Shown here piece after piece: positions 5,689-58,321 of a stretch of DNA of 64,000 nucleotides. The notes below the pieces were generated by a model, which had not been told where the DNA came from, did no database searches, and saw only the letters and a program-made list of their open reading frames with translations. How positions within the stretch are numbered: the first letter of the stretch is position 1; every line of letters starts with the position of its first letter. This stretch comes from a virus: the IMG/VR virus record IMGVR_UViG_2140918012_000003; one strand, 5' to 3'. Both the position numbers and the translations under genes were made by a program.

Positions 5689-5894
5689 TGCCTGAATTAC
5701 ACGTCCATCCAGCGCTGCTGGGCGCTCTTACGACGGTTCCTCGATTTCAGCAGGAACCGTTCGTAGGTAAAATTGTGGCGGTATGGATGCGAGACAGCCA
5801 TCCTGTACCTCAAGTGGCGGTGCTGCGGGTGGACGGTGTAGTGATGTACGCAGCCCTAAATGATTGTGTGATCGACACTCGGAGTAATTTCTAG
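5688..5894 (+). CDS. hypothetical protein
   Basis: 68-aa ORF, TAATG overlap. Confidence 0.55.
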   Translation: MPELHVHPALLGALTTVPRFQQEPFVGKIVAVWMRDSHPVPQVAVLRVDGVVMYAALNDCVIDTRSNF

Positions 5895-5951
5895 CCGACT
5901 TTATCTTTTTTTCTTGGAGCTTTACTATGGGTTCTGGTATAGCTTGGACTC

Positions 5952-6275
5952 ATGGCTAAGCTTGCGAAGTCAAACAGAAAACAGAAAGTCGTGTACGAGG
6001 ACGCTTCAGCGCGGAAGGTCACCTTTGCGGCCCAAAAGCGGGTAGGGGACTTGCACCCCTACGTCAAAAAGGTCATGCGTGCCATTGGGCACGGTGAGGC
6101 GTGGGTGTCTGACGAGTCGAAATTGTCGGATTTTATGTCGGTGGTAAAAATGGACCGTACACGTGACGAGCGTGTGATCAAGAACAAGCTCAAGAACGAG
6201 TTCAACCTTGATGTGGCTGTTACGGAGTACGTCGTGGACGTGGCAGAACGGCTTTATCAGCGGTCACTGAATTAA
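5952..6275 (+). CDS. hypothetical protein
   Basis: 107-aa ORF. Confidence 0.65.
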   Translation: MAKLAKSNRKQKVVYEDASARKVTFAAQKRVGDLHPYVKKVMRAIGHGEAWVSDESKLSDFMSVVKMDRTRDERVIKNKLKNEFNLDVAVTEYVVDVAERLYQRSLN

Positions 6276-7337: not shown

Positions 7338-7598
7338 GTGGCCTCAAAGACCATCCGGCAGCAGGTGATCGAGCGTGATGGGCTGGTGTGCCAGGTCTGC
7401 TTGGATCCGGTTGCGCTCGATGAGATAACACTGGATCATATAATCCCTCGGTCCAAAGGTGGCCTGACGACGGTTGAAAACCTTCGGGTTGCCTGCATGC
7501 CTTGTAATAGCAGCCGGGGTAATGACGAGCCCAAGCCAGCCCCGCACAGGCGGCGCGGGAAAGGGGCTAGTAGAAAGAGTGGCGCAATATGGGTTTGA
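7338..7598 (+). CDS. HNH endonuclease
   Basis: RDGLVCQVC...TLDHIIPRSKGG..TVENLRVACMPCNSSRG. Confidence 0.9.
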   Translation: MASKTIRQQVIERDGLVCQVCLDPVALDEITLDHIIPRSKGGLTTVENLRVACMPCNSSRGNDEPKPAPHRRRGKGASRKSGAIWV

Positions 7599-13552: not shown

Positions 13553-13948
13553 ATGCAAAGAGTTGAGAATAGGGACGACCATCGAGTCGTGTGGCACGGA
13601 GCGTACGGGTGGCGCACGCGCCATGATGTTGTGTCGCACTACTACGCCAGTAGCGATTGCGAATCCTTGATACAAGGGTTTGTCGAGCTATTAGAAGTGC
13701 GCGACCCAATTCAATTAGGTTTATTTGGACGTAGCAGTGTTTTTATCTTGCACAGTTACCTGTCCGATCGAGGCTCAATCTGGTGGGAGTGCCCGTCACT
13801 CAAAGAAGCTGCCCGCGTAAAGAAAGCCTTCTTCAAGTGGCACTGGGCAGATGTGACGCCAGAAAGTGTGCCTGTGCTAGAGGGCAGGCCAACGCAGAAT
13901 GCTCCAAAAGCGGATCCGTGGTTCTACAAAGAGCCGCAGGCAGCATGA
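13553..13948 (+). CDS. hypothetical protein
   Basis: 131-aa ORF. Confidence 0.55.
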   Translation: MQRVENRDDHRVVWHGAYGWRTRHDVVSHYYASSDCESLIQGFVELLEVRDPIQLGLFGRSSVFILHSYLSDRGSIWWECPSLKEAARVKKAFFKWHWADVTPESVPVLEGRPTQNAPKADPWFYKEPQAA

Positions 13949-14790
13949 TTCTAACTGGACCGTGTGAGATGGTGTTATCGTCGGTGCCTGACGCTCAGGT
14001 CAAACTGATCGTCACCTCACCGCCCTATAATATCGGCAAGGAGTACGAGCAGGCGCAGACGCTAGATGCCTACCTCCAAAGTTTTGAGAAGGCCGCCGAG
14101 CAATTTTTACGTGTGCTTCACCCAGAGGGTTCGCTTTGTTGGCAGGTCGGCAATTACGTGACTGAAGGCGAGATCGTGCCGCTCGATGTGCTTTTTTACA
14201 GTTTCTGGAAACGCTACGGCTTCAAGCTTCGCAACCGAGTCATCTGGCATTTTGACCACGGTCTGCACGCCCAGAGGCGATTTTCAGGGCGCTATGAGGT
14301 TTTGTTGTGGTTCACACGGGGCGACACGTACACGTTCAACCTAGATGCCGTGCGTGTGCCCAGTAAATATCCTGGCAAGAAGCATTACAAGGGGCCTCGC
14401 AAGGGCCAGCTATCGGGTAATCCGCTTGGGAAGAACCCATCTGATTTTTGGGGCGAGGTAAAAGAGGTTGTGAGCGACGACTGGGACCGAGGGGTGTGGG
14501 AGGTGCCCAATGTGAAGCACAACCACCCCGAGAAGACAGCCCACCCGTGCCAGTTCCCAATCGAATTTGTGGAGCGCTGTGTCCTGGCCTTCACGAACCC
14601 TGGTGATTTAGTGCTTGACCCCTACGCCGGATCTGGTACGAGCGTTCTGGCAGCTTTGAAGCTCGGGCGACGCGGCCTCATGTGCGAGACGGATGCGGGG
14701 TATATCGAAATAGCTAAGCAAAGATTAGCAGCGTTTGAGTCTGGGACGCTAGGCTATCGCGAGTTGGGTAAGCCAATTTATGGGTCATAG
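13945..14790 (+). CDS. DNA amino-methyltransferase (N4-C/N6-A, beta class), orphan
   Basis: VTSPPY catalytic motif precedes VLDPYAGSGT SAM motif; HPCQFP; ATGA overlap start. Confidence 0.92.
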   Translation: MILTGPCEMVLSSVPDAQVKLIVTSPPYNIGKEYEQAQTLDAYLQSFEKAAEQFLRVLHPEGSLCWQVGNYVTEGEIVPLDVLFYSFWKRYGFKLRNRVIWHFDHGLHAQRRFSGRYEVLLWFTRGDTYTFNLDAVRVPSKYPGKKHYKGPRKGQLSGNPLGKNPSDFWGEVKEVVSDDWDRGVWEVPNVKHNHPEKTAHPCQFPIEFVERCVLAFTNPGDLVLDPYAGSGTSVLAALKLGRRGLMCETDAGYIEIAKQRLAAFESGTLGYRELGKPIYGS

Positions 14791-16998: not shown

Positions 16999-17273
16999 TG
17001 ACGCCTGCTGAAAAGCGTGAGGCGATAGCAGAGCTAAATGAAGATGCTCTGCTAGCTGACGGGTTTGAGGATGCTTTGGTTGGCTACGTGCAAGTTTTTA
17101 ACAAGACAATTGCACTATACGACCGTGCGAAATGCATAAGCATCCTCATGTCTCGTGACGGCATGTCCGAGGAAGAGAGCGAAGAATTCTTTGAGTTCAA
17201 TGTCGTCGGAGCATACGTGGGCGAGCACACGCCTGCGTTTGCTTCATTCTTCGATGGAGGGTCACTGCCATGA
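16995..17273 (+). CDS. hypothetical phage protein
   Basis: ALLADGFEDALVG...EFFEFNVVGAYVGEHTP pattern resembling small phage proteins. Confidence 0.7.
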   Translation: MMTPAEKREAIAELNEDALLADGFEDALVGYVQVFNKTIALYDRAKCISILMSRDGMSEEESEEFFEFNVVGAYVGEHTPAFASFFDGGSLP

Positions 17274-36721: not shown

Positions 36722-37744
36722 ATGTACAAGCTGCTTACACGTGATGCCTTTCGCGAGAGCGTCTTTGCACGCGATGGGCACAAGTGCATCTTGTGCAAGT
36801 CACCAGCCGTCGATGCCCACCACGTTATCGAACGACGCCTCTTCCCGGATGGTGGCTATTATCTCTCAAATGGCGCCTCTGTCTGCGAAAGCTGCCATCT
36901 GCGCTGTGAAGCCACGCTGGTTTCCTGTGAAGAAGTACGGGCTGCGGCCGGTATCAAACAGCTAGTCCTACCACCGCATTTGTACGCTGACGCAGAACAA
37001 GCCTACGATAAATGGGGCAACCCAATCTTGCCTAACGGCCAGCGGCTTCGCGGCGAGCTATTCGATGATGCCTCGGTACAAAAGGTCTTAGCACCGGTTC
37101 TTCATCTTTTCACAAACCGTGTGAAATACCCTCGTACTTGGCACCTGCCGTTTTCACCGGGCATGCACGATGATGACCGCATGATCGAATCGACTGCGCA
37201 CTTCGTAGGGCAGCGTGTAGTCGTCACCGAAAAACTCGATGGCGAGAACACTACCATTTATCGTGATTACGTTCATGCACGTTCGCTCGATTACGCACCT
37301 CGGGTTGACCGAGACTGGGTGCGTGCGCTAGCGGCTCGCATCGGTTATGAGCTAGACGAAGACTATCGTGTATGTGGAGAAAACCTTTGGGGGACCCACG
37401 CCATTAAATACACGCAACTACCATCATACTTCATGGTGTTTTCGCTGTGGGATGGGCTAAAGTGCTTGCCATGGGATGACACCAAGGACTGGGCTGCACT
37501 TCTGGGCTTGCAAACTGTACCGGTGCTCTTTGATGGTATCTGGGATGAAAATTTAATTCGCAAGCTGCACCAGAAACGCCGAGGTGTTGACGAGTCTGAA
37601 GGGTTCGTGGTACGCTTGGCTGGTAGCTTTCACTATCGAGATTTTCGTCATGCTGTCGCTAAGTACGTGAGGGCTGGTCACGTTGCTGGCTCACATGCGT
37701 ATACTACAAAACGCATTTTTGAAAGAAATGGGCTAGTACGATGA
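36722..37744 (+). CDS. HNH domain - RNA ligase fusion protein
   Basis: N-term RDGHKCILC...DAHH...NGASVCESCH; C-term KYPRT, TEKLDGEN (motif I), CGENL, EGFVVR, KYVR. Confidence 0.85.
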   Translation: MYKLLTRDAFRESVFARDGHKCILCKSPAVDAHHVIERRLFPDGGYYLSNGASVCESCHLRCEATLVSCEEVRAAAGIKQLVLPPHLYADAEQAYDKWGNPILPNGQRLRGELFDDASVQKVLAPVLHLFTNRVKYPRTWHLPFSPGMHDDDRMIESTAHFVGQRVVVTEKLDGENTTIYRDYVHARSLDYAPRVDRDWVRALAARIGYELDEDYRVCGENLWGTHAIKYTQLPSYFMVFSLWDGLKCLPWDDTKDWAALLGLQTVPVLFDGIWDENLIRKLHQKRRGVDESEGFVVRLAGSFHYRDFRHAVAKYVRAGHVAGSHAYTTKRIFERNGLVR

Positions 37745-40722: not shown

Positions 40723-42057
40723 ATGGGTTCCGAGGCAGACAAAAGCACTGAAAAAGCCCTAGTAATCGCATCTAGCGCTGAAATCAGCGAAAATTCGCCT
40801 ACTAGCACAGGGTTGGTAATTCATAATAGCCCAGCTAATAATAGAGGGATAGTCAGTCGGCTCGCCGCGCCCTCGACCGAGCTAGCCCCAAGGCGCATCA
40901 CCGCAGCATCAGCCGGCGTCCAGCCCCCTAAGGCAGCGCATGTATTCACCTTCTCTATAGCTGACATCGATGATAGCCTACGCAACAACGCCAAATTAGC
41001 GTACGAGGCTTGGCTTAACCACAAACCAAAATCTAAGAGAGCCTACGTCGATAGTTTCAAAGCGTTCATGCGTTTCGTTGGAGCCACGACAACAGAAGAC
41101 GCAGCAGCCTTCCTCTTAGCTGGTGGCCATGTGCATGCTCAGGCCATCTTGGCAAATTTTGCCAAGCACTTGTTAACCGCTCAACGGGTCACGATGACCG
41201 GCCGTAGAACGATTGCGCCTGACTTAACCAGGTTGCCAACCACGGTACGGAATAGGCTGGCTGCGGTGCGATCCTTTTTGAAGTCAGCTAACACCAACAA
41301 TGTAATCGACTGGACTGTAGAATTCAAACCAAAAGACCACAACATACCAGCAGCCAGGCCATACTCAAAAGTAGAAGGCCCAGGCGCCAAGATGCTGGAG
41401 GTTATCTACGACCACTATACGAATGGGCTTGATGCGGCACGAGCTTCTGGAGATTCAAAAACCGCGACCAGGCTGGCTCGGGACTTTGCTATCTTGTCTC
41501 TCATGATGTTTGCAGCCCTGCGGCGTAAAGAGATAGCTGGTCTAGAAATCACCGATATTGACCTGACTGACTTGTCCAGCGCTCGCGTTAACATCCTAGG
41601 AAAAGGGCGAGAGCACAAGGAATGGTTCAATGTTACGAAAGAAGCGGTCATGCCGATATCTGAATGGTTGACCTACCGGTCAACCGTCGAGGGAGCAGAT
41701 CGGCATAATAACCTCTTCATTTCTTTGTCCACACGCAGCGATGAAAAAGGTACACCTCTTCGCCTCAACGCCTACAACGATATTCTTGCTGAACTAGAAA
41801 TAACCCTAGGCTTGCCACCTGGTGTGTACCTGAAGCCTCATGGCTTTCGGCATACTGCGATTACATACGCCTATGAAAATTACGGAGAGCAGGCTGCTAT
41901 CGCCCTGGCACGACATGCGGATCTTGCGACCACGATGCGCTACATCGATAGTATCAGGAAAGCCCTTGCAAGTCTAGAAGCTATGCGTGGGTTGGCAGAA
42001 AAAATAGCAAGGAGACGACCCGCCGTGATGGCGCTACCAATCTCCTATTCGCCCTGA
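40723..42057 (+). CDS. tyrosine recombinase/integrase (XerC/D-like)
   Basis: catalytic residues present: ALRRKEI (R), GKG (K), PHGFRH (HxxR), ARHADLATTMRY (H, Y). Confidence 0.93.
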   Translation: MGSEADKSTEKALVIASSAEISENSPTSTGLVIHNSPANNRGIVSRLAAPSTELAPRRITAASAGVQPPKAAHVFTFSIADIDDSLRNNAKLAYEAWLNHKPKSKRAYVDSFKAFMRFVGATTTEDAAAFLLAGGHVHAQAILANFAKHLLTAQRVTMTGRRTIAPDLTRLPTTVRNRLAAVRSFLKSANTNNVIDWTVEFKPKDHNIPAARPYSKVEGPGAKMLEVIYDHYTNGLDAARASGDSKTATRLARDFAILSLMMFAALRRKEIAGLEITDIDLTDLSSARVNILGKGREHKEWFNVTKEAVMPISEWLTYRSTVEGADRHNNLFISLSTRSDEKGTPLRLNAYNDILAELEITLGLPPGVYLKPHGFRHTAITYAYENYGEQAAIALARHADLATTMRYIDSIRKALASLEAMRGLAEKIARRRPAVMALPISYSP

Positions 42058-42099: not shown

Positions 42100-44286
42100 T
42101 TGCACTGTTCGCCTAAATTTCCAGTCAGGGACCTCGGTCAGTTGCACTGTTCGCCTAGTCAGGCTTACCTCACAGAAGTGCGGCACGCAAGCGCCGAATC
42201 GCGCTGGCCAAGGACCGCTTCTTGGCCGACAGGCCGAACCTGATCATACTCTCGATCTGAAAGTAGGTCAGGTCTCTATTGACCGCGTTAACGCTGTCAG
42301 CGACCTGCTGCTCTAGTTCTGCCTCGGGCAGTTCCTCTACAAATCCGAGTAGGTTGAGAAGATTTTCACGGGTTCCCTAGGTCACGCCTGGGCATCTTTA
42401 CTTAGCTCTTCAATGAACGAACGGTCGGTTTACGACCCTTCCATTTACTATCGCGAACAGGCTTGATCGTACACAACGGGCCATCCGGTCAGCACACACG
42501 ATCAAACACGGGTGGACGCAATTGCACTGTTCGCCAGAGAGTCGTCGCATGTCAGATTGCACTGTTTGCCTTGAAGACCTGCGTTGGCTTCCAGGATTAC
42601 TGCACTGTTCACCGAACATTTCACGTCGCGGGTATTTTTCTCTTGCACTGTTCGCCGCTAAGTTTTTTAATCTACGAGTACTTCCTTTTGCACTATTCGC
42701 TTGCGGGCCTGCACTGTTCACCCTAAATGGTCGCCTTTCGCGCCAAGTACTTGCTTGCACTGTTTGCCGCCAAAGTCAACATGGTCATCCACGACACTTG
42801 CACTGTTCTTCCCAAAGTCGAGGAAACAACTCGACGAGATAGCTTGCACTGTTTGCCACACTTGAGGAATGATCTGCTCAGAAACCGTGGAAGTCGCATT
42901 CAGGTCGATTGACGGCGCCCGCTCAATGGCTTCGCGCAGGGCCGCTCCAGAGTCGCATTGCACTATTCGCTAAAAAGGTTATGGCCAAAAAGAGAAACTT
43001 GCACTATTCGCACCTCAGGCACAACGTCGATCTGGGGCGACTCAAAAACTTGCACTGTTCGCTTAAATTCGCCGTCATGCTTTTTCGCCTAAGTTGAGAA
43101 AATCGAGCGCTCTGCACTATTCGCCTGAATCAGCGTGAAAACCATGGCGCTCCTGGACCGACCTTGCACTGTTCGCCTGATAACAAAGCTGCGTGGGCCA
43201 AGCTGCGGCAGCACAAATTGCACTGTTCGCCTAAATTGCCTCTCGCCACATAACCTCAACTAGACGTGTACATTATTGCACTGTTCGCGTCAAGACCTTT
43301 TTGAACAAAGGCCAGGTCTCCCAGATGGATTGCACTGTTTGCCAAATTTAGCAAGGGCGGCTGCACATGCTGCACTGTTCACCTTAAAGAGCGTCGCGTC
43401 GTACACCTTGCACTGTTTCGCCTAAACCCTGAGAGCGTTCAGACCGCCTTTCCGTATTGCACTGTCCTTGAAAAAGTACGACAACCGCTGGTCTTGCATT
43501 GTTCGCCAGACTAATACGAGGGCGCGCTTTCTTCTTGCACTGTTTTGCCATCGACGGCGCCGAGTAATTGCACTGTTTCGCCTAAACCATGTTCTTCCCC
43601 AGAAGAACTCCGTCTTGCACTATTCGCAGACCTGATACCCCTTGCACTGCTCGCCATCCTCTTTAACCACCAGGTAGAACCGCCACTGGATTTGCACTGC
43701 TTCGCCAGCCAGTCCAACGAGATCATCTTACACTGTTCGCCACAGAGGAACCATCATGCGCTATTGCACTGTATCGCGACTTTGCACAACGGGAAACTAG
43801 TCGGAATCGAACCGAATTTGCACTACTCGCTAAGAAGATTGAAGATGTTGTCTTTGCACTGTTTTAGCACAAATTCCTGAGACGAATTGCATTGCTCGCC
43901 TAGAAGCCGAAAGTGGTAGACGGCTTGCACTGTTTCGCCAACACACTCTCATCGTCGTCGGCACTTGCACTGTTTTGCCTAAAGCTTAATCACGTCCGCA
44001 ATCTGAATTGCACTGCTCGCGTTTAGGGGAGCGTCTTCCGATCTTAGCGCTGCCCTTCAAGGGAGGATGTTTGTGCCAACAGCTTTCTTGCACTGTTCAC
44101 CTGATGAATCATGCTCCACATCAGGCCAGCTTCTCGCAGTCGCCATGCTCGGATAATCGAATTTGCACTGCTCACCTGAACCCATCACAAACAGTCGTGA
44201 CGCTCGCCGCTTGCACTGTTCTGCCCTATTTCAAAATTATCAAAGATCGAATGTTCACCTGGGACTACTCTACTGCATTATTCGCC
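42100..44286 (-). CRISPR. non-canonical CRISPR-like array: about 40 x 14-bp repeat (+ strand TTGCACTGTTCGCC; - strand GGCGAACAGTGCAA) with unique spacers
   Basis: 40 copies counted by eye from 42100 to 44273; 31 of 39 periods are 33-58 bp; adjacent to a Cas12f-like gene and an anti-repeat hairpin. Confidence 0.75.
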
Positions 44287-44298
44287 AGTAAGAAAAGT

Positions 44299-44384
44299 GG
44301 GGTGCCCGCCGATTGGCGAACTTACGCGGAGCAACGTCCACGCATCCGGCACAAGTGCAATTGGCCGTCGGAGACGGGCACCCC
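44299..44384 (-). ncRNA. putative tracr/scaffold RNA with split anti-repeat
   Basis: 10-bp perfect terminal stem (GGGGTGCCCG/CGGGCACCCC) plus CCGA/TCGG; contains GGCGAAC (44315-21) and AGTGCAA (44354-60), the two halves of the repeat in inverted orientation; inner stem needs G-U pairs available only on the - strand. Confidence 0.7.
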
Positions 44385-44396
44385 GAATTTGTGTGG

Positions 44397-45005
44397 TTAC
44401 GCGGCGACAGCCTCCTGGGTGCGCTCCACGTTTACGCCCAGCCCCATAAGGCCACCACAGGCGATATCCACGGCAGTCCTGTGCTTGCCTGGATCTAGCT
44501 CTGCAATGATCGAGAGTACATCAATGGCGCGTTGCAGTTTGTCAGAAACTACGCCCCTTTTTTGTTTGGGCACCGCAACACCAAGGGCCAGGGCTTCTTC
44601 CCTCACGATATTGGCGACATGCCGATCTGAAGGTGTAGTGCCAGCTTCTGCTTGAAAAGACAGCAAGTGGGCTTTGACGTTTTCGTAGATGGCAGTACTG
44701 GCCTTCTTGGCAAGCTTCGGATCTGAAGCGTCAAGAGCACCGGCTAGAGCACACGCCCCAGCAAGACCAAGAGCATCGGCCCGCTTGCGCCCGTAGCGCT
44801 TAACGGCGCTATTATACTTGTTGTAAGTGGCCACCGAAACATGGAGCACTTCGCGCAGCAACTGGTCAAACGTCTTAAATTGGCCGACCCAGCTTTGCGA
44901 CTGGTCAAACTCCAAACACAGACCGAAGACCCGCAGCTTGGCCGCTTCGCCTTCTTTCTTGGCGTCCAGAATGTCAGTTACAAATGTTGCAAAGCTCTTT
45001 TTCAT
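44397..45005 (-). CDS. hypothetical protein, putative HTH DNA-binding accessory of the Cas12f-like locus
   Basis: 202 aa; ATGA overlap with the Cas12f-like gene; W..QFKTFDQLLREVLHVS..TY resembles phage HTH-type motifs. Confidence 0.7.
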   Translation of the reverse strand: MKKSFATFVTDILDAKKEGEAAKLRVFGLCLEFDQSQSWVGQFKTFDQLLREVLHVSVATYNKYNSAVKRYGRKRADALGLAGACALAGALDASDPKLAKKASTAIYENVKAHLLSFQAEAGTTPSDRHVANIVREEALALGVAVPKQKRGVVSDKLQRAIDVLSIIAELDPGKHRTAVDIACGGLMGLGVNVERTQEAVAA

Positions 45006-46603
45006 CGAATTTCCCCTTGCACGACCGCTGGAGCGGCTTTCTTCATGCGTGCGACCTTCATCTCGGCCTTGGTATTGCTGATCATCTTATCGGTGCGTGA
45101 GATAGCTTTGATAAGGGCAGCCTTGTATGGCTCGCCAGCGACCTTGGATGACAATAGCATGTTCTGGATGGAAGTCAACTCCAAATCGCCACTATGCTGA
45201 CAGTTGACGCACTCAAAAAAGCCATCCTTGGCGTCGTAGCCTACCACTTTGGGTAGACGCTTGATATTTTCCTTGCAAGTATGACTGCACACAGGGCATT
45301 TCTGCGAGATAAAAGCTGATGCCTCTTCGTTGACCTTGACCCCAGCCCTGCGGGTGAGCGCGTCAATCACACGGCCTTTCAATTCGGCCAGCGGGAACCT
45401 ACGCACGTAGGGTGCCAAATTCGGGTCGTCGGATTGGAAGGCTCCGAAATTATCGAGTAGCACAATACTAGCACCGTGGCGCTCAGCGAAGACCTGCACA
45501 GCTTTGGCTGCACGCCAAAGCTCTGTGTCGGTAAAGCGTGCCTCTTTATCGGAGAGCTTTTTCAGAGCAGCAAAATGCTTCTTCTTGCCTCGACCTGCGT
45601 GGGGTGTAGCGCTCAGGTCTTTTTGAATGAGCTTGCGCCGAGCATACATCTGCGATTTGAGGCGCACCAAATTCGTGCCTGGGTAGCTGCCCGTGGTCAC
45701 ATGGTTCTTCTTGTCGATCGCCAGGAACGACAGCATGTTCACGACGCCACGGTGAACAATCACGAGCGAGTCAGACTCTTCTTTTGCGAGCCGCGAAGAC
45801 TTGTAGGGAAGGCGCACGAACCATTTTTCGGGCTGGCCTGGCCGGCGCACCCGAGCAATTTGCAGGGCGCCTTTAGCATAGCCTTCGGCTTCTGGAACAT
45901 CGCTCTTGTCGTAGTCAATGGCCACGAGCTTTTTCAGCACCTCGACCATCGAGGCCACGCCACGGCCATGCAGGCTTTTACACACGAGGCGCATCTTGCC
46001 CTCACCGGGGCGCCAAGCCGAAGTTTCGATGACGACGTTCGTGTAGGTCTTGGGTTGACCCGTGCGAACGTCGGTTTTAGTCACTTCCTCAAAGAGCACA
46101 CGCCAGTTCCGGTTCCTGATCGTAAAAGGGACGTTACGTAGCAACGGGAAGGACGAATCGCCACGCAGAAGCGCGTTGAGCCTGTCACCGGCAAATTCCG
46201 AATCCACGATCCGCTTGGTAACGCTTGACCAGATATACTCGGTCAAGCCTGTAGCCTTCATGGCCTTTTCAACAGCCGTCTTGAACCCTACCGTGTCCCA
46301 GCACTCGGAAGGTAGCGGTACCTCTTGATCTTTGAGCATGGCGCGCTCATCAGCCGTAGAAAAGCGCATCTTGCCAGCCATACGCTGGTCCCGAAGCGAG
46401 ACAGCGATATCTGCGATAGCCACCTGAGCAGCCTTGCCGATATCACGGCTGGCAGTGCGTAGCTCTGCCCAGGCTTTCGTTCCGTCCGTTTTTTCAGGGC
46501 GGTAAAGCTCAAGCGTCATACAGGCGACCGGGTTTTTGGTCGGCTTGTGGACGCTGGATTCTTCTTCATCGAAATCATCGAGCGCGTCAGCAGCTTCTTG
46601 CAT
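45002..46603 (-). CDS. Cas12f/TnpB-family RNA-guided protein, predicted nuclease-inactive
   Basis: LLRGDSSFP, GRGKKK...LSDKEARF..., SQKCPVC and FECVNC zinc ribbon; RuvC positions read H287, D387, E478 (ORF-track numbering) in place of D/E/D; ATG 46603 is 7 nt after the -10 box. Confidence 0.85.
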   Translation of the reverse strand: MQEAADALDDFDEEESSVHKPTKNPVACMTLELYRPEKTDGTKAWAELRTASRDIGKAAQVAIADIAVSLRDQRMAGKMRFSTADERAMLKDQEVPLPSECWDTVGFKTAVEKAMKATGLTEYIWSSVTKRIVDSEFAGDRLNALLRGDSSFPLLRNVPFTIRNRNWRVLFEEVTKTDVRTGQPKTYTNVVIETSAWRPGEGKMRLVCKSLHGRGVASMVEVLKKLVAIDYDKSDVPEAEGYAKGALQIARVRRPGQPEKWFVRLPYKSSRLAKEESDSLVIVHRGVVNMLSFLAIDKKNHVTTGSYPGTNLVRLKSQMYARRKLIQKDLSATPHAGRGKKKHFAALKKLSDKEARFTDTELWRAAKAVQVFAERHGASIVLLDNFGAFQSDDPNLAPYVRRFPLAELKGRVIDALTRRAGVKVNEEASAFISQKCPVCSHTCKENIKRLPKVVGYDAKDGFFECVNCQHSGDLELTSIQNMLLSSKVAGEPYKAALIKAISRTDKMISNTKAEMKVARMKKAAPAVVQGEIR

Positions 46604-46610
46604 GTTGGTC

Positions 46611-46642
46611 ACTATACTCCTATGGTTCTTGACGTGTCAAGA
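46611..46642 (-). promoter_or_regulatory. promoter of the Cas12f-like operon with palindrome over the -35 box
   Basis: TTGACA-18-TATAGT on - strand; TCTTGAC-gt-GTCAAGA inverted repeat 46627-46642. Confidence 0.7.
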
Positions 46643-54197: not shown

Positions 54198-56297
54198 CTA
54201 AGTCAGATCCATGAGTTTGAAATATTGAATCCAGGCATCCAGGTCCTTGCCGCTACTCCACTGGTGCCGAGCGTATGCGAATTCGCCCTGCATAGCAATC
54301 CGAAAAAGCGGGTACTTGGCGTAGAGCGCTCCAATGGCTTGCTTGGCGACATCTTCCTTGTCCGTACCGCGATTAACAAGGTAGTCCAACGCAGAGGAAT
54401 TTTTCTGCTGTCTACCCTCCTGGTACTTGCGCACAGCCACAGTCACCGGATGCTTGGGGCCAAGAGCCTTCGTTACATCCTGCACATCCGCCCTCAACAC
54501 ATCGCACGCACTCCACTGTTTAAGCTCAAGTTGAGCTTTCACTTCGGGCAACGCAAGAATTTTCTTCGTGAAAGCTGCGCTCCATTTATCGTAGGCAGTG
54601 CCCTTGCACTTGTCGCCCGTGACAGGCTTAGCCTCCGTGGTCTTATACCCGTAGATTTCGGGCATTTTCGCGCCCGGCGCAAAGGTCTTGACGATCTCAG
54701 CGTCCTGTCGAAAACGCCGGTAAATATCCTGACCGTCACTACTCTTGAAGCTCGACAAAATGACAAACACGTCATCATCGGTCGGCTCCCTCACAGCGAT
54801 CTCCCAGCGATCTGAGAGCAGGTCGCTGTGGATATTATCGGGCACCAACCGGAACATTTTCGCCCGGTGCTTCGGGTTTACCTGGCGTTGCGGATAGCTC
54901 CGAGTTGCAGGAGCCGTCCAAGGCAGCGTTGAAAGATTGATGAGTGGAATGCCCTTGATCAGCTTCTTCTCAATTTCAGCTTCAAGAGCAGCACGTACAG
55001 CTTCCACCATGACCGTATCGATACGCTTGGCTACACTCTTCCGTCGGCGTCGAGGGCGACCGTGCTTGTCCGTACGGTCGTTGTCTTCATCGAGCACCGT
55101 GCGACCGACGATGTATTCGCCCCGTTTATCTACCTCAAACCCCGACAGCGCTCGCCCATCATCACGAATGATAATACGGGAGCTTTCACCAACATGAACT
55201 TCGAATGCGTTAAATATGGGCCTCTCACCATCTTTGACAGCGGGTGGCACAATCTCAACGTAATCCTCAGTAAGCTCTTTTGACTGCTTGTCGAGCTTGA
55301 GCCCAAATCTACGCAGTCCCTGCGCCTTGAGGCGACGCTGCCACGGCAGGACATCCGGCGCATGGATTTCGCGCAGGGCAACCTCAACGTATTCAGCAAT
55401 AAATGCATTGAGCTTATCCACCAAAGCCTTTTTGGTCGCAAGGCTATATTTCAGAGCCTCACGAGACGCACTGACCTGCACATCCCCGATGTTGAAAAAG
55501 AGCACACCACTGAGTTTCTTGACGCATTCCTCGGGTGACCCAGCCTCGTCAGCATCGTTGACAAAAAGCTCGTCCAAATTGATCTGGTACGGGATGCAGC
55601 CCATGACAGCCGTCCATTCACCGCTGCTGTAGTAATCAGCATCCACAAGAGCGCCGTGAACGAGCCTTGCAGGCACGTCTGGAAGAGCCGTATTGATGAC
55701 AGGACGCGGTTCAAAATACTGGAAGACCTTCCTGGCCTTCGTCTCAAATTCACCAATGTCCTGCTGACGCACAGCCATCTGAATCGTCACGCCAGTTTCA
55801 TCACCGCAAGGTTCTTCACCAAGCAGATTGATTACACCACGCTCAGACGGATCGAGCACAGCCACGAACGTGCGCCGCACGCCACCGTGGCAGGAGATCA
55901 CCGTAAAAGAATCAGAGTACGCAAAGGCACTTTTGCTCCCGATCCCCATAAAGCCCACTTCGCCATCGCTATTGCGTTTGGTGGACGCACCGTACTGCGA
56001 GTAGACGTTGAATACGTCATCGAGTGACAGGCCAGGGCCAAAATCCTGGATGGAAAGCGTGGGGTCAGCCAGGGTGGGCAACGTGACCTTGATGGGCTTA
56101 TCGCCCTTGCCGATTGACCTGTGGGCATCCCACGCATTCGATCCGTACTCACGCAGAACAGCCGTGATCTTGTCGGAGTACAGGGTACTGCGCAGGATTT
56201 CAAGAATATGCGAGGTATCGGTTTCCGAGATACCAAACGTACCTTGCGCCGTTACACCGCTTGATTCAAGCTCTCGCGGATGCTTATTCGGAATCAT
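54198..56297 (-). CDS. rIIA: rIIA-like protein (GHKL ATPase N-terminus)
   Basis: ILRSTLYSDKITAVLREYGSNAWDAH; IQDFGPGL; GASTKR..GFMGIGSKSAFAY; ETGVTI. Confidence 0.88.
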   Translation of the reverse strand: MIPNKHPRELESSGVTAQGTFGISETDTSHILEILRSTLYSDKITAVLREYGSNAWDAHRSIGKGDKPIKVTLPTLADPTLSIQDFGPGLSLDDVFNVYSQYGASTKRNSDGEVGFMGIGSKSAFAYSDSFTVISCHGGVRRTFVAVLDPSERGVINLLGEEPCGDETGVTIQMAVRQQDIGEFETKARKVFQYFEPRPVINTALPDVPARLVHGALVDADYYSSGEWTAVMGCIPYQINLDELFVNDADEAGSPEECVKKLSGVLFFNIGDVQVSASREALKYSLATKKALVDKLNAFIAEYVEVALREIHAPDVLPWQRRLKAQGLRRFGLKLDKQSKELTEDYVEIVPPAVKDGERPIFNAFEVHVGESSRIIIRDDGRALSGFEVDKRGEYIVGRTVLDEDNDRTDKHGRPRRRRKSVAKRIDTVMVEAVRAALEAEIEKKLIKGIPLINLSTLPWTAPATRSYPQRQVNPKHRAKMFRLVPDNIHSDLLSDRWEIAVREPTDDDVFVILSSFKSSDGQDIYRRFRQDAEIVKTFAPGAKMPEIYGYKTTEAKPVTGDKCKGTAYDKWSAAFTKKILALPEVKAQLELKQWSACDVLRADVQDVTKALGPKHPVTVAVRKYQEGRQQKNSSALDYLVNRGTDKEDVAKQAIGALYAKYPLFRIAMQGEFAYARHQWSSGKDLDAWIQYFKLMDLT

Positions 56298-56303
56298 GCA
56301 AGT

Positions 56304-56332
56304 AGTGTATAACAGGTTTGGCAGGATGTCAA
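56304..56332 (-). promoter_or_regulatory. conserved phage promoter (leaderless-type)
   Basis: TTGACATCCTGCCAAACCTGTTATACACT, 1 mismatch to the 33950 copy; ATG 6 nt downstream. Confidence 0.8.
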
Positions 56333-56374
56333 GTACGGTCTAGCGTGCCGGTTCCTGCGTGATATTCTCGTCGG

Positions 56375-56623
56375 TCATTTTGGATTCTTTCTTTTGGCTA
56401 TCTCTGCTTTGTACGCAGTGAGTTGCTGGACGTACTTGGCTTCGCGTTCGGGCATGTTGTCGCAAGCTTCGATCTTCCGTTCAATTCCTTTCAGGAACGT
56501 CTCTGCGACTTCAAGCATGAACGGGTCGCGCGACAGATCAAACGCCTGCAAACAGGTCTTGAACCCTCGCTCGTCGTTGGCGTCGGCTGCATCCATGAAC
56601 GCGGACACAACTTCGTCGGTCAC
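56375..56623 (-). CDS. hypothetical protein
   Basis: 82-aa ORF. Confidence 0.6.
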   Translation of the reverse strand: MTDEVVSAFMDAADANDERGFKTCLQAFDLSRDPFMLEVAETFLKGIERKIEACDNMPEREAKYVQQLTAYKAEIAKRKNPK

Positions 56624-56625
56624 TT

Positions 56626-56940
56626 CTACACCGCATCTAACTTCCGCACAGGTTGGTGCCTAGGGTCAATTAGTGACGTTGAATCACCGCATACAGTCAC
56701 TACTGGCACTCGCTCCTTCTCGCCGTAAAACGCCAGCATTTTCTGCGGCCACTCGCTAGTTTTAACCGCGTGCCGATCCCAGATTTCGTCTTCTACAAGC
56801 TTTTGTGATGGGCTCCTAAATGATACACCATGCTCCAAATCTTCCGCTAATTGACGCAGGTCATTGTCAGAAACATGCTTGACCCAATTAGGCTCTGCCC
56901 ACTCACCCACCACATACTCAGGGTCAAGAGGCAGACGCAT
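56626..56940 (-). CDS. hypothetical protein
   Basis: 104-aa ORF, GAGG upstream. Confidence 0.6.
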   Translation of the reverse strand: MRLPLDPEYVVGEWAEPNWVKHVSDNDLRQLAEDLEHGVSFRSPSQKLVEDEIWDRHAVKTSEWPQKMLAFYGEKERVPVVTVCGDSTSLIDPRHQPVRKLDAV

Positions 56941-56946
56941 ACCTCA

Positions 56947-57384
56947 CTAGACCTTGAAATCCAGATGCTGCACCGTACGCAGCGTTGCGTGAACCGTGCC
57001 CTTGTCCAAGTCAATTGCGATCTGCTCAAAACCGTGCGCCCGTGCCCATTCGATAGCGCCCTTCAATTGCTGCATGAGCGGGTTGCCATTCGGCTGGACC
57101 AGCGGCTGCTTCTGCACTCTCATGCCGACGGCCGTACGCTTATATACACCCAGACGAAGCTGTTTAGCACGAAGTTTAACGGCCAACGGCGACCTGGTAT
57201 CGTGCTGCTGGCACTTCTTGTGCTTGATACCAAGCTCAGCAGCTTTTTGGGACACACCACGCTTAGAGCGTCCCATAATTTTGGCGACAGCCGCCCAATT
57301 ATCTCCATTGGCAGCTTCACGAAGCTTGGCGATTTCCGATACGGACCATGCATTGCCTGGCATTTGATTACTCCTATCGTACAC
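56947..57384 (-). CDS. Myb/SANT-like HTH protein (putative)
   Basis: WSVSEIAKL....WAAVAKIMGRSKRGV. Confidence 0.6.
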   Translation of the reverse strand: MYDRSNQMPGNAWSVSEIAKLREAANGDNWAAVAKIMGRSKRGVSQKAAELGIKHKKCQQHDTRSPLAVKLRAKQLRLGVYKRTAVGMRVQKQPLVQPNGNPLMQQLKGAIEWARAHGFEQIAIDLDKGTVHATLRTVQHLDFKV

Positions 57385-58321
57385 TCATGATCTTCTTAAC
57401 GAGCGCTACCTTGCCACCAGGAATCTTGCTGGCGCCGATGATGCTGAGGTTTTTGGTGGCGTACTTGCGCAAGTCTTCGATGGACAGCTTGAGCAATCCT
57501 TCCGCACCAAGCTTATCGAATTTAGAAGCCTTGGGACGAGCCTTTTCGACGTGCTCAGGCTTGAGCGTCTTCTTCACCTTGCCCTGGTCAGCCTTGAGGT
57601 TGAAGCTAGTCGAAGGCAGATTGGCACCATGCATGCCCACCACCTTGTACTTCGACACCCGCATCTTCTGCTGGCTAGCATCGTAGGGCACGCACACGAC
57701 ATCAGCCGGATCGATTTCACAGATCACGAGACGACTTTCACCGCTACCGAAAGTACTCGCATAGTGCAATGAGCCAACGTGGAAACCTTCATGACACGCA
57801 ACTTGCGGGTCATCCGAAATCTTGTTGCGCGGCATCTCATTGACCACACCCGGCTTGTTGCTGACTTCACCCGAGTGGTGGTCCTTGTAGTCAGCCCGCA
57901 CGGACTTGTAGGCCAAGATATTGCCATCTTCGGAAATGGCGATGTTCTGGTGGTCGAGGAACCCCCAAAGTTGGTTTACTGACCGGTATGACGGATTCTC
58001 GGAAAGCTTCTCCCAGAACTTGAACAGGCTCTCGGGGCTTTCACCCTTGGCAGCCATATTGAAGATACGCCCCGAAAGCTCGCCAGGCAACGCCTCACCA
58101 GCGTACTCGATGGTGCTACCATCAACCTTGAACTTGCCCTTCGCCCATTTCTGAACGCTCATAGGCACGGACAGGTGCTGCGGCACGCTATCCCAGTCTT
58201 CGTCTATGATGGCTTTGCGCAAGTTGGTGAAATTAGGGGTGCCCTTGCGCACTGAATGGGTCTTGCCGTTGATAACGACGGTGATAGAATCGGTGGTGAT
58301 CGTATACGCAGGTTTCGTCAT
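57374..58321 (-). CDS. rIIB: rIIB-like protein
   Basis: FLDHQNIAISEDG.ILAYKSV..DYKDHHSG...EMPRNKISDDP..C..G.HVG...VVCVP.D...KMRVSKY. Confidence 0.88.
   Translation of the reverse strand: MTKPAYTITTDSITVVINGKTHSVRKGTPNFTNLRKAIIDEDWDSVPQHLSVPMSVQKWAKGKFKVDGSTIEYAGEALPGELSGRIFNMAAKGESPESLFKFWEKLSENPSYRSVNQLWGFLDHQNIAISEDGNILAYKSVRADYKDHHSGEVSNKPGVVNEMPRNKISDDPQVACHEGFHVGSLHYASTFGSGESRLVICEIDPADVVCVPYDASQQKMRVSKYKVVGMHGANLPSTSFNLKADQGKVKKTLKPEHVEKARPKASKFDKLGAEGLLKLSIEDLRKYATKNLSIIGASKIPGGKVALVKKIMSVR

Follow-up and report, generated by a model that had tools for sequence, protein, structure and literature searches.

In Cas12f1, the RNA transcribed from short palindromic repeats that are clustered and regularly interspaced (CRISPR), the crRNA, is held by a long repeat/anti-repeat stem together with a short pseudoknot stem of 5-7 bp (PMC11246509). 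Arrays that lack cas1, cas2 and cas4 accompany many Cas12f loci (PMC10691335). Here we describe an 86-nt element from a stretch of viral DNA of 64,000 nt (IMG/VR record IMGVR_UViG_2140918012_000003), the whole of which is referred to as the window. The element is the minus strand of 44384..44299 and lies between an accessory open reading frame (ORF) of 202 aa, which follows a gene for a Cas12f-like effector, and an array of 40 units with a 14-nt repeat core. With a probability of roughly 0.8, comparison of related loci suggests that it is the gene for a compact scaffold, similar to a trans-activating CRISPR RNA (tracrRNA), of a phage-borne Cas12f-related RNA-guided system. The fold of the element, its conservation beside the effector gene, its strand and the co-variation of its two anti-repeat blocks with the repeats were all shown by computation. 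Read in this way, the arrangement is a variant of the tracrRNA-dependent type V design, in which an unusually small tracrRNA serves repeats that are reduced to a 14-nt pairing core. A search of the literature found no publication on the effector family of the window or on an arrangement of 14-nt repeats with a 90-nt tracrRNA.

The closest described systems are those of type V-F1 Cas12f (AsCas12f, OsCas12f, SpCas12f1, Un1Cas12f1), to which the window protein is nearest in both fold and profile. As in these systems, the scaffold is encoded separately, beside the gene, and the repeat would be paired in two segments, with a guide-proximal contact that may be pseudoknot-like (PMC11246509). However, the window effector is only ~15% identical in sequence, carries a His at the RuvC-I site and is accompanied by a scaffold of ~90 nt. 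Moreover, the 'long' stem is cut to 7 bp, the repeats consist of a 14-nt core with irregular spacers and, across the family, the scaffold occupies either the gene's 5′ leader or a site downstream of an accessory ORF.

A second comparison is with TnpB omega-RNA and with TranC, the latter reportedly characterised by 'functional RNA splitting' (Jin et al. 2025 Cell). Scaffold and guide-bearing part are likewise split in the window family, the arrays resemble serial duplications of the 3′ end of the scaffold and in three relatives (L005, L008 and L007; loci carry the prefix L throughout) the effector gene shares its 3′ end with the first repeat, in the manner of an omega-RNA. In contrast, TnpA and transposon ends are absent here, the scaffold lies outside the 3′ end of the gene and the guides are many. 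The window scaffold does not have the form of the IS200/IS605 TnpB omega-RNA, which is a single RNA over the 3′ end of the gene within a transposon. A Y1 transposase was found at one locus only (L008, 1 kb upstream) and is absent from the near-identical twin of that locus, L009.

An altered RuvC site, and with it an effector that probably only binds, is shared with TldR (10.1101/2023.11.30.569447), dCas12f-sigmaE (PMC13472631), Cas12m and Cas12k, and a phage-encoded version is precedented for TldR. Those effectors work with a single guide RNA or with crRNAs, and the dCas12f systems yielded no tracrRNA (PMC13472631). Whereas dCas12f has a C-terminal truncation, the window family has a His substitution. 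Unlike dCas12f-sigmaE and TldR, it also lacks a conserved sigma-factor or fliC neighbour and has a separate scaffold with arrays. Those two systems combine a nuclease-dead effector with a single chimeric guide RNA and a conserved partner gene (rpoE, fliC or oppF); here, a Sigma70_r4 gene is present in L009 only. Finally, subtype V-U24 is described as CRISPR-associated, with a noncanonical RuvC-I and a helix-turn-helix (HTH) partner (PMC10691335). The His substitution and accessory ORF of the window are similar, whereas no HTH is detectable in the accessory ORF. The main text on V-U24 mentions neither a tracrRNA nor a 14-nt repeat (PMC10691335). V-U24 might be the same clade as the window family.

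Fold and conservation of the putative scaffold

The element begins 12 nt past the TAA of the 202-aa ORF and reads exactly as quoted in the original prediction, which was made from the window sequence alone. It contains two 7-nt blocks, TTGCACT (44360-44354) and GTTCGCC (44321-44315), that when joined are the exact reverse complement of the repeat GGCGAACAGTGCAA, so the complementarity to GGCGAAC-AGTGCAA claimed at the outset is perfect. What splits the blocks is an 8-bp inner hairpin. On the same strand, this split pattern matches once in the window against 0.06 expected per window from shuffles, and the remaining three matches are the array on the opposite strand. Under a laxer null model (any split point, a gap of 0-80, both strands) 0.56 matches are expected per window and about one third of simulated windows contain one. 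The split complement at the window locus alone is suggestive, not conclusive; it is therefore the comparative data that make the observation decisive.

RNAalifold was run on independent MAFFT alignments of 9 and 12 sequences, and both gave the same three-helix junction, all of it on the minus strand in the window. The outer stem P1 has a comparative consensus of 12 bp (44384-44373 with 44310-44299, GGGGUGCCCGUC paired with GGCGGGCACCCC), with an A-U extension in many loci. P2 has at least 4 bp and a loop that holds AUUGCAY; in the window it is a 4-bp stem, CGGC/GCCG, supported by covariation (44367-44364 with 44350-44347). The inner hairpin P3 (44344-44337 with 44330-44323) has 8 bp and is nearly invariant. 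Anti-repeat block 1, UUGCACU (44354..44360), lies in the P2 loop and pairs with the guide-proximal repeat half AGUGCAA, and block 2, GUUCGCC (44315..44321), is single-stranded between P3 and P1 and pairs with the other half, GGCGAAC. Standard pairs occupy 95% of alignment cells, compared with 37-47% when the partners are slid by 1-3 columns, and compensatory changes are seen at 15-16 pairs, with double changes in 15 of the 27. None of 500 column shuffles reached the observed values. The minimum free energy (MFE) of the 86-nt element is -45.6 kcal/mol (z = -3.2).

This fold revises the stems first drawn for the element. The inner 8-bp stem stands, while the proposed outer stem of 14 bp gives way to the 12-bp consensus in another register. 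Its CCGA/UCGG extension is lost, as the fourth pair is not kept in relatives and the consensus uses two of the G's differently. P2 had been overlooked, and block 1, which had been placed in an internal loop, sits in a hairpin loop. The two G-U pairs of the inner stem, from which the strand had been deduced, are real, and one of them is invariant in 12/12 sequences. In the 9-sequence alignment, U19-G and G50-U are invariant. Since several G-U pairs are invariant, the RNA strand is that of the effector gene. The statement that Cas12f tracrRNAs pair with the repeat in two segments, on which the original prediction had drawn, agrees with the published description (PMC11246509).

The effector family comprises 26 proteins of 31-60% identity in a collection clustered at 90% identity, all from phage-like contexts, or ~18 near-full-length clusters at 50% identity. 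The DNA around 13 family members was compared. Scaffolds were found in L005/L006, L007, L008/L009 (two tandem copies), L010, L011, L012 and L013, upstream of the gene and usually behind a TTGACA promoter of their own, whereas the window scaffold lies downstream. A covariance model was then made from nine sequences, with L016, L017 and L018 held out. Such a search near homologous genes had been proposed with the original prediction, and it recovered the element in all three loci that the model had not seen, scoring 88 bits in L018 (just upstream of the gene), 66.6 bits in L017 (2.6 kb upstream) and 71 bits in L016. The last is the locus of the closest homologue (60% identity) and has the layout of the window, i.e. 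gene, 217-aa ORF, hairpin and then ACUUUUC. In total, the scaffold was found at 11 further loci beside effector homologues, and at every family locus with enough flanking DNA.

In the window the model scores 80.5 bits at 44299..44384, with no second copy. It did not find the scaffold at four distant TnpB-like phage loci (L001-L004), and a search of Rfam with the 86-nt hairpin returned no matching family. No relatives of the effector were found in a scan of genome contigs. Viral contigs yielded just distant TnpB-like loci (23-25% identity) without the scaffold, and a metagenome scan added one more short contig. The tandem duplication of the scaffold in L008 occupies 5749-5844 and 5882-5977, and is the same in L009; the copies differ at one base of block 2 (CCTCATC or CTTCATC), which gives one G-U wobble with the repeat.

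Predicted pairing with the local repeats and the putative guide array

Both anti-repeat blocks change together with the repeats of their own locus. The segment after P3 is GTTCGCC in the window, where the repeat core is GGCGAAC-AGTGCAA; ATTCACT in L005, facing AGTGAAT-G-GTGCAA; CCTCATC in L008, facing GATGAGG-AATGCAA; CGCTCTT in L010, facing AAGAGCG-AATGCAA; and CACTCTT in L011, facing AAGAGTG-AATGCAA. The shorter cores AGG-AATGCAA (L012) and AGAGG-AATGCAA (L013) are matched by CCT... and CCTCT..., and a GGTGATC core predicted from the hairpin of L007 faces GATCACC. Across eight lineages, block 2 and the local repeat core agree at 52/56 when cognate; derangements of these pairings average 29.4 with a maximum of 45, and 0 of 14,833 reach 52. 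Block 1 of the relatives reads UUGCAC where the repeats have GUGCAA and UUGCAU where they have AUGCAA, its closing C or U tracking the G or A of the repeat. In type V-F systems a tracrRNA gene whose anti-repeat complements the repeat lies close to the effector, and the window shows such an arrangement.

For L018 and L017, a 14-mer was predicted from the sequence of the hairpin alone; on the strand of the gene it occurs 8 times in L018 and 7 times in L017, and on the opposite strand 0 times. In L007, the third locus at which a repeat predicted in this way was recovered, the contig breaks within the predicted GGTGATC at the stop codon of the gene (7450-7460). The most distant homologue, the L014 protein (32% identity), is accompanied by an RNA of unrelated sequence and the same layout, in which the outer stem has 28 bp, a hairpin loop contains CUUCAGU and an inner hairpin precedes CUCUCGAC. 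Its blocks complement the local repeat GTCGAGAG-GA-ACTGAAG (MFE -69 kcal/mol, z = -8.9). The scaffold of the window type offers two pairing segments, the guide-proximal one in a hairpin loop, and each is just 6-7 bp long. Taken together, conservation at the 11 further loci, helices with compensatory changes and the co-variation of both blocks with the local repeat support the compact tracr-like RNA of the original prediction, every computationally testable part of which held.

The window array (42100..44286, minus strand) is made up of 40 units, in which unique spacers of 7-366 nt (median 29) separate copies of the 14-nt core GGCGAACAGUGCAA. Units were counted with up to 3-4 mismatches to the 14-mer; all 40 occurrences fall on the minus strand between 42100 and 44286, with essentially none elsewhere. 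Near-matches at 17110, 21170, 36108, 48169 and 54604 were rejected, as their number is that expected by chance. The information content of the repeat leaves background at the first complementary nucleotide and drops after the last of the 14. Because the core is kept over 40 units between random flanks, selection on each unit is indicated. In-register pairing with the scaffold extends to at least 12 of 14 positions in 31/40 units, and most of the others have one extra A beside the junction of the two blocks, so that one bulge would interrupt their pairing. Near this junction, relatives tolerate an unpaired base too (L005, L010). The guide-proximal half pairs 7/7 in 37 of the 40 units. The first unit, GGCGAAUAAUGCAG, is degenerate and lies 12 nt past the hairpin (44273..44286, minus strand), where it might serve the scaffold in cis as a single-guide-like partner.

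With its 14-nt core and uneven spacers, the window does not contain a regular CRISPR array (repeats of ~28-37 nt, uniform spacers), and Tandem Repeats Finder did not detect the array in the window. Relatives, however, have regular arrays with repeats of 36-37 nt and spacers of ~30-36 nt, and repeats of 36-39 nt occur in L005, L008, L010 and L015. The gene-proximal units of L005 have 37-nt repeats that start inside the 3′ end of the coding sequence, while its distal units, which are presumably older, retain the ~17-nt core alone. We read the window array, from its sequence, as one that has probably decayed except for the tracr-pairing core. Two pairs of loci encode identical effector proteins and differ in unit number, by eight units between L005:7464-8380 and L006:2557-2890 and by two between L008:7482-7860 and L009:7482-7715. 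Turnover of units in these arrays is therefore rapid. At the fetched loci, no adaptation gene was called.

Repeat units were also observed at start codons. In L007 a complete unit, GGTGATCGATGCAA (5993-6006), overlaps the start codon of the effector gene ~20 nt past the scaffold; since pairing in cis would cover this codon, translational autoregulation is possible. In L012 (6745-6790) and L013 (6505-6535), a solo repeat core, AGGAATGCAA, precedes the next gene's start codon by 15-25 nt, so that the 'spacer' is the ribosome-binding site and start of that gene. The gene behind the effector in these two loci is a weak RRM_1 match, and the arrangement is common to both diverged loci.

Several further features of the arrays were noted. 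The window array is interrupted by a repeat-free gap of 366 nt (42156-42521), beyond which lie two perfect repeats (42142-42155 and 42100-42113), and its end adjoins the integrase gene, the last repeats being 43 nt from the stop codon at 42057. In L010 (4400-5000 and 4076-4149), a regular array with repeats of ~36 nt is situated between scaffold and gene, i.e. upstream of the gene; this locus also has a tRNA-Met gene directly before the scaffold and short degenerate units past the gene. A RadC-family gene (PF04002) is found behind the array at L010:6700-7314, L011:7197-7724 and L017:6182-6625, and may be a conserved neighbour. At L001:5670-7065, a distant TnpB/Cas12-like gene (23% identity) of an IMG/VR contig is followed by ~20 regularly spaced repeats with a period of ~70 nt, a separate phage type V-like array without a scaffold of the window type.

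The effector and its genomic context

The effector gene is a 536-aa ORF (45002..46612, minus strand) whose product probably has 533 aa, the length of the database copy P0003. A sigma-70-like promoter, TTGACA-18-TATAGT, agrees with the consensus at 11/12 positions (46611..46640, minus strand) and probably drives the whole minus-strand unit, its role as a promoter being deduced from this agreement. Its -10 box ends at the listed GTG. Therefore, the likely start of the effector is the ATG at 46603 and the mRNA would be leaderless or nearly so.

An AlphaFold2 (AF2) model of the effector built on 26 homologues had a mean confidence score (predicted local distance difference test, pLDDT) of 84.7. 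The best Foldseek match was AsCas12f (8dzj, E 2.2e-18, ~490 columns), followed by OsCas12f, SpCas12f1, CnCas12f1 and Un1Cas12f1; the structures of LaTranC and TnpB were far weaker (E 7e-7 and 6e-8, against 2e-18). The family profile likewise matched SpCas12f1 (E 1.8e-21) and OsCas12f (E 3.7e-17). The effector has the make-up of a small effector of the Cas12f/TnpB fold, with a WED/REC N-terminal half and a RuvC domain split by the zinc-ribbon TNB. The zinc ribbon is intact and its CxxC...CxxC is invariant in the family. By sequence the protein matched Pfam Cas12f1-like TNB, PHROG transposases and NCBIfam guided_TnpB, all below their cut-offs, and it falls outside the curated families (NCBIfam Cas12f2 and TnpB, Pfam PF07282), with 38 bits against a required 100, 27 against 450 and 16.5 against 26.3.

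The catalytic site of RuvC is altered. In the profile alignment the family has HR at DLG/DMG, DD at E(N/D) and D at D. The RuvC-I Asp is replaced by a His (H287) that is invariant in 26 homologues, and the RuvC-II Glu by Asp. At RuvC-III, Asp is retained by most family members and replaced by Glu in the window protein, so the D-E-D triad is not intact. With an invariant His in place of the RuvC-I Asp, target binding without DNA cleavage is the most likely activity of the complex.

The 202-aa accessory ORF (44397..45005, minus strand) is all-helical and overlaps the stop codon of the effector gene (ATGA). It is present in 2 of the loci examined, the sole homologue found being the 217-aa ORF at the same position in L016 (40% identity, E 3e-48). 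It had no match in Pfam, PHROG or NCBIfam, and its AF2 model was poor (pLDDT 57.5). The HTH once suggested for it was not confirmed, as there is no family match and the model is too poor to search. Further genes of the window include rIIA- and rIIB-like genes (54198-58321), an RNA ligase (36722-37744), a DNA methyltransferase (13783-14790) and an integrase. The rIIA, rIIB, RNA ligase and DNA methyltransferase genes identify the window as a phage genome. A megablast search of the window against 50,697 deposited phages found no nucleotide similarity.

Alternative explanations and significance

The proposed mechanism would begin with one minus-strand transcript from the promoter at 46640 that carries effector, 202-aa ORF, scaffold and array. 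The scaffold would fold into the three-helix junction, and each repeat would pair with it through its 14-nt core, forming two segments of 7 nt. Of these, the guide-proximal half would contact the P2 loop like a pseudoknot and the distal half the strand joining P3 and P1, the invariant P3 projecting between the two. The Cas12f-like protein would recognise this composite handle, the first ~16-20 nt of the next spacer would act as the guide and binding of the target without cutting of DNA might result in silencing or exclusion. That the RNA is expressed and processed, that the protein binds it, that spacers serve as guides and that nuclease activity is lost are inferences.

Several points weigh against this mechanism. 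At ~90 nt the scaffold is much shorter than characterised Cas12f tracrRNAs, which are well over 100 nt, and the pairing segments are short as well (6-7 bp each). At lengths of 7 and 13 nt, some of the spacers are too small to act as guides. When the spacers of the window, L005 and L011 were compared with the 50,697 phage records (blastn), only chance-level matches were found, and all window spacers compared with the masked window and all fetched loci (blastn-short) gave none above chance. RNAcofold predicted no dimer between scaffold and repeat unit (ddG 0), a result not counted as evidence as the tool cannot model pairing within a closed multiloop or hairpin loop. Moreover, in both the window and L016 ACUUUUCUU stands behind the outer stem, so the element may additionally terminate transcription ahead of the array. 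This U-tract behind P1 may define the 3′ end of the scaffold or attenuate read-through.

Some of these observations would suit other explanations. Hairpin and first repeat could together form a cis single guide RNA similar to omega-RNA, in which case the other 39 units would be decayed duplicates without guide function. A repeat core does occur ~12-45 nt past the hairpin in most loci, the spacers are irregular in length and some too short, and no protospacers were found. Nevertheless, we consider this unlikely, since the 14-nt core persists in 40 units with random flanks, the guide-proximal half is perfectly paired in nearly all of them and, among relatives, phages that encode the same protein have regular arrays with different numbers of units. 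Quite unlikely, too, is a role of the RNA in antisense regulation or as a processing guide, in which it would act on the 14-nt core as a tag in transcripts, for example by directing RNase cleavage or masking ribosome-binding sites, independently of the Cas12f-like protein. Such a role would account for the solo cores just upstream of start codons, including the core over the effector ATG in L007 and those before the next gene in L012 and L013. It would not explain why the scaffold is found at every family locus with enough flank and is absent from unrelated TnpB-like loci, why its architecture mirrors the two-segment pairing of Cas12f or why P3 is nearly invariant, as expected of an element in contact with a protein.

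That the element is just an intrinsic terminator or attenuator of the effector operon, with an incidental complementarity to the repeats, is very improbable. Its GC-rich 12-bp outer stem with the tract that follows it in the window and L016 has the appearance of a terminator. However, at nine other loci the element is upstream of the gene and has a TTGACA promoter of its own, the sequences of loop and junction are conserved, the anti-repeat blocks co-vary with the repeats and a terminator scan of the window made no call there. A secondary role as a terminator may nonetheless exist. We give hardly any credence to a function at the level of DNA, such as a site of recombination or protein binding used by the neighbouring integrase or by the 202-aa protein. 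The array does abut a tyrosine recombinase gene, but on the opposite strand A-C mismatches would stand in place of the invariant G-U pairs, covariation keeps the pairing and not the sequence, and the integrase is no conserved neighbour of the element in relatives.

The tracrRNA-like scaffold thus remains our preferred explanation of the element. A bolder extension of it, which we regard as doubtful, is that a phage lineage has stripped a type V guide system to the least that it needs, so that a ~90-nt scaffold acting in trans could turn the transcript segment behind any tag of 10-14 nt into a guide for a non-cutting Cas12f-like protein. Arrays could then grow and decay without Cas1-Cas2 as long as the tag is kept, and through tags before start codons (L007, L012, L013) the scaffold would also act on phage mRNAs, in regulation or processing. 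If true, the system would combine two functions, the silencing of DNA of the host or of rivals by 40 guides and an RNA switch that regulates itself.

Through the scaffold, an array that is invisible to CRISPR finders, owing to its 14-nt repeats and irregular spacers, is tied in a concretely testable way to a divergent and unannotated Cas12f-like protein. A tracr-dependent type V effector may need just a ~90-nt scaffold and a 14-nt handle per guide, which would be attractive for very compact multiplex guide arrays, above all in binding-only applications of the CRISPR interference type. The finding also raises the question of what use a phage makes of 40 guides and a His at the RuvC site. The link between array and protein defines a small, phage-specific effector family, and it offers an evolutionary snapshot in which, within one family, repeats range from 37 nt and an omega-RNA-like overlap with the 3′ end of the gene to the bare core.
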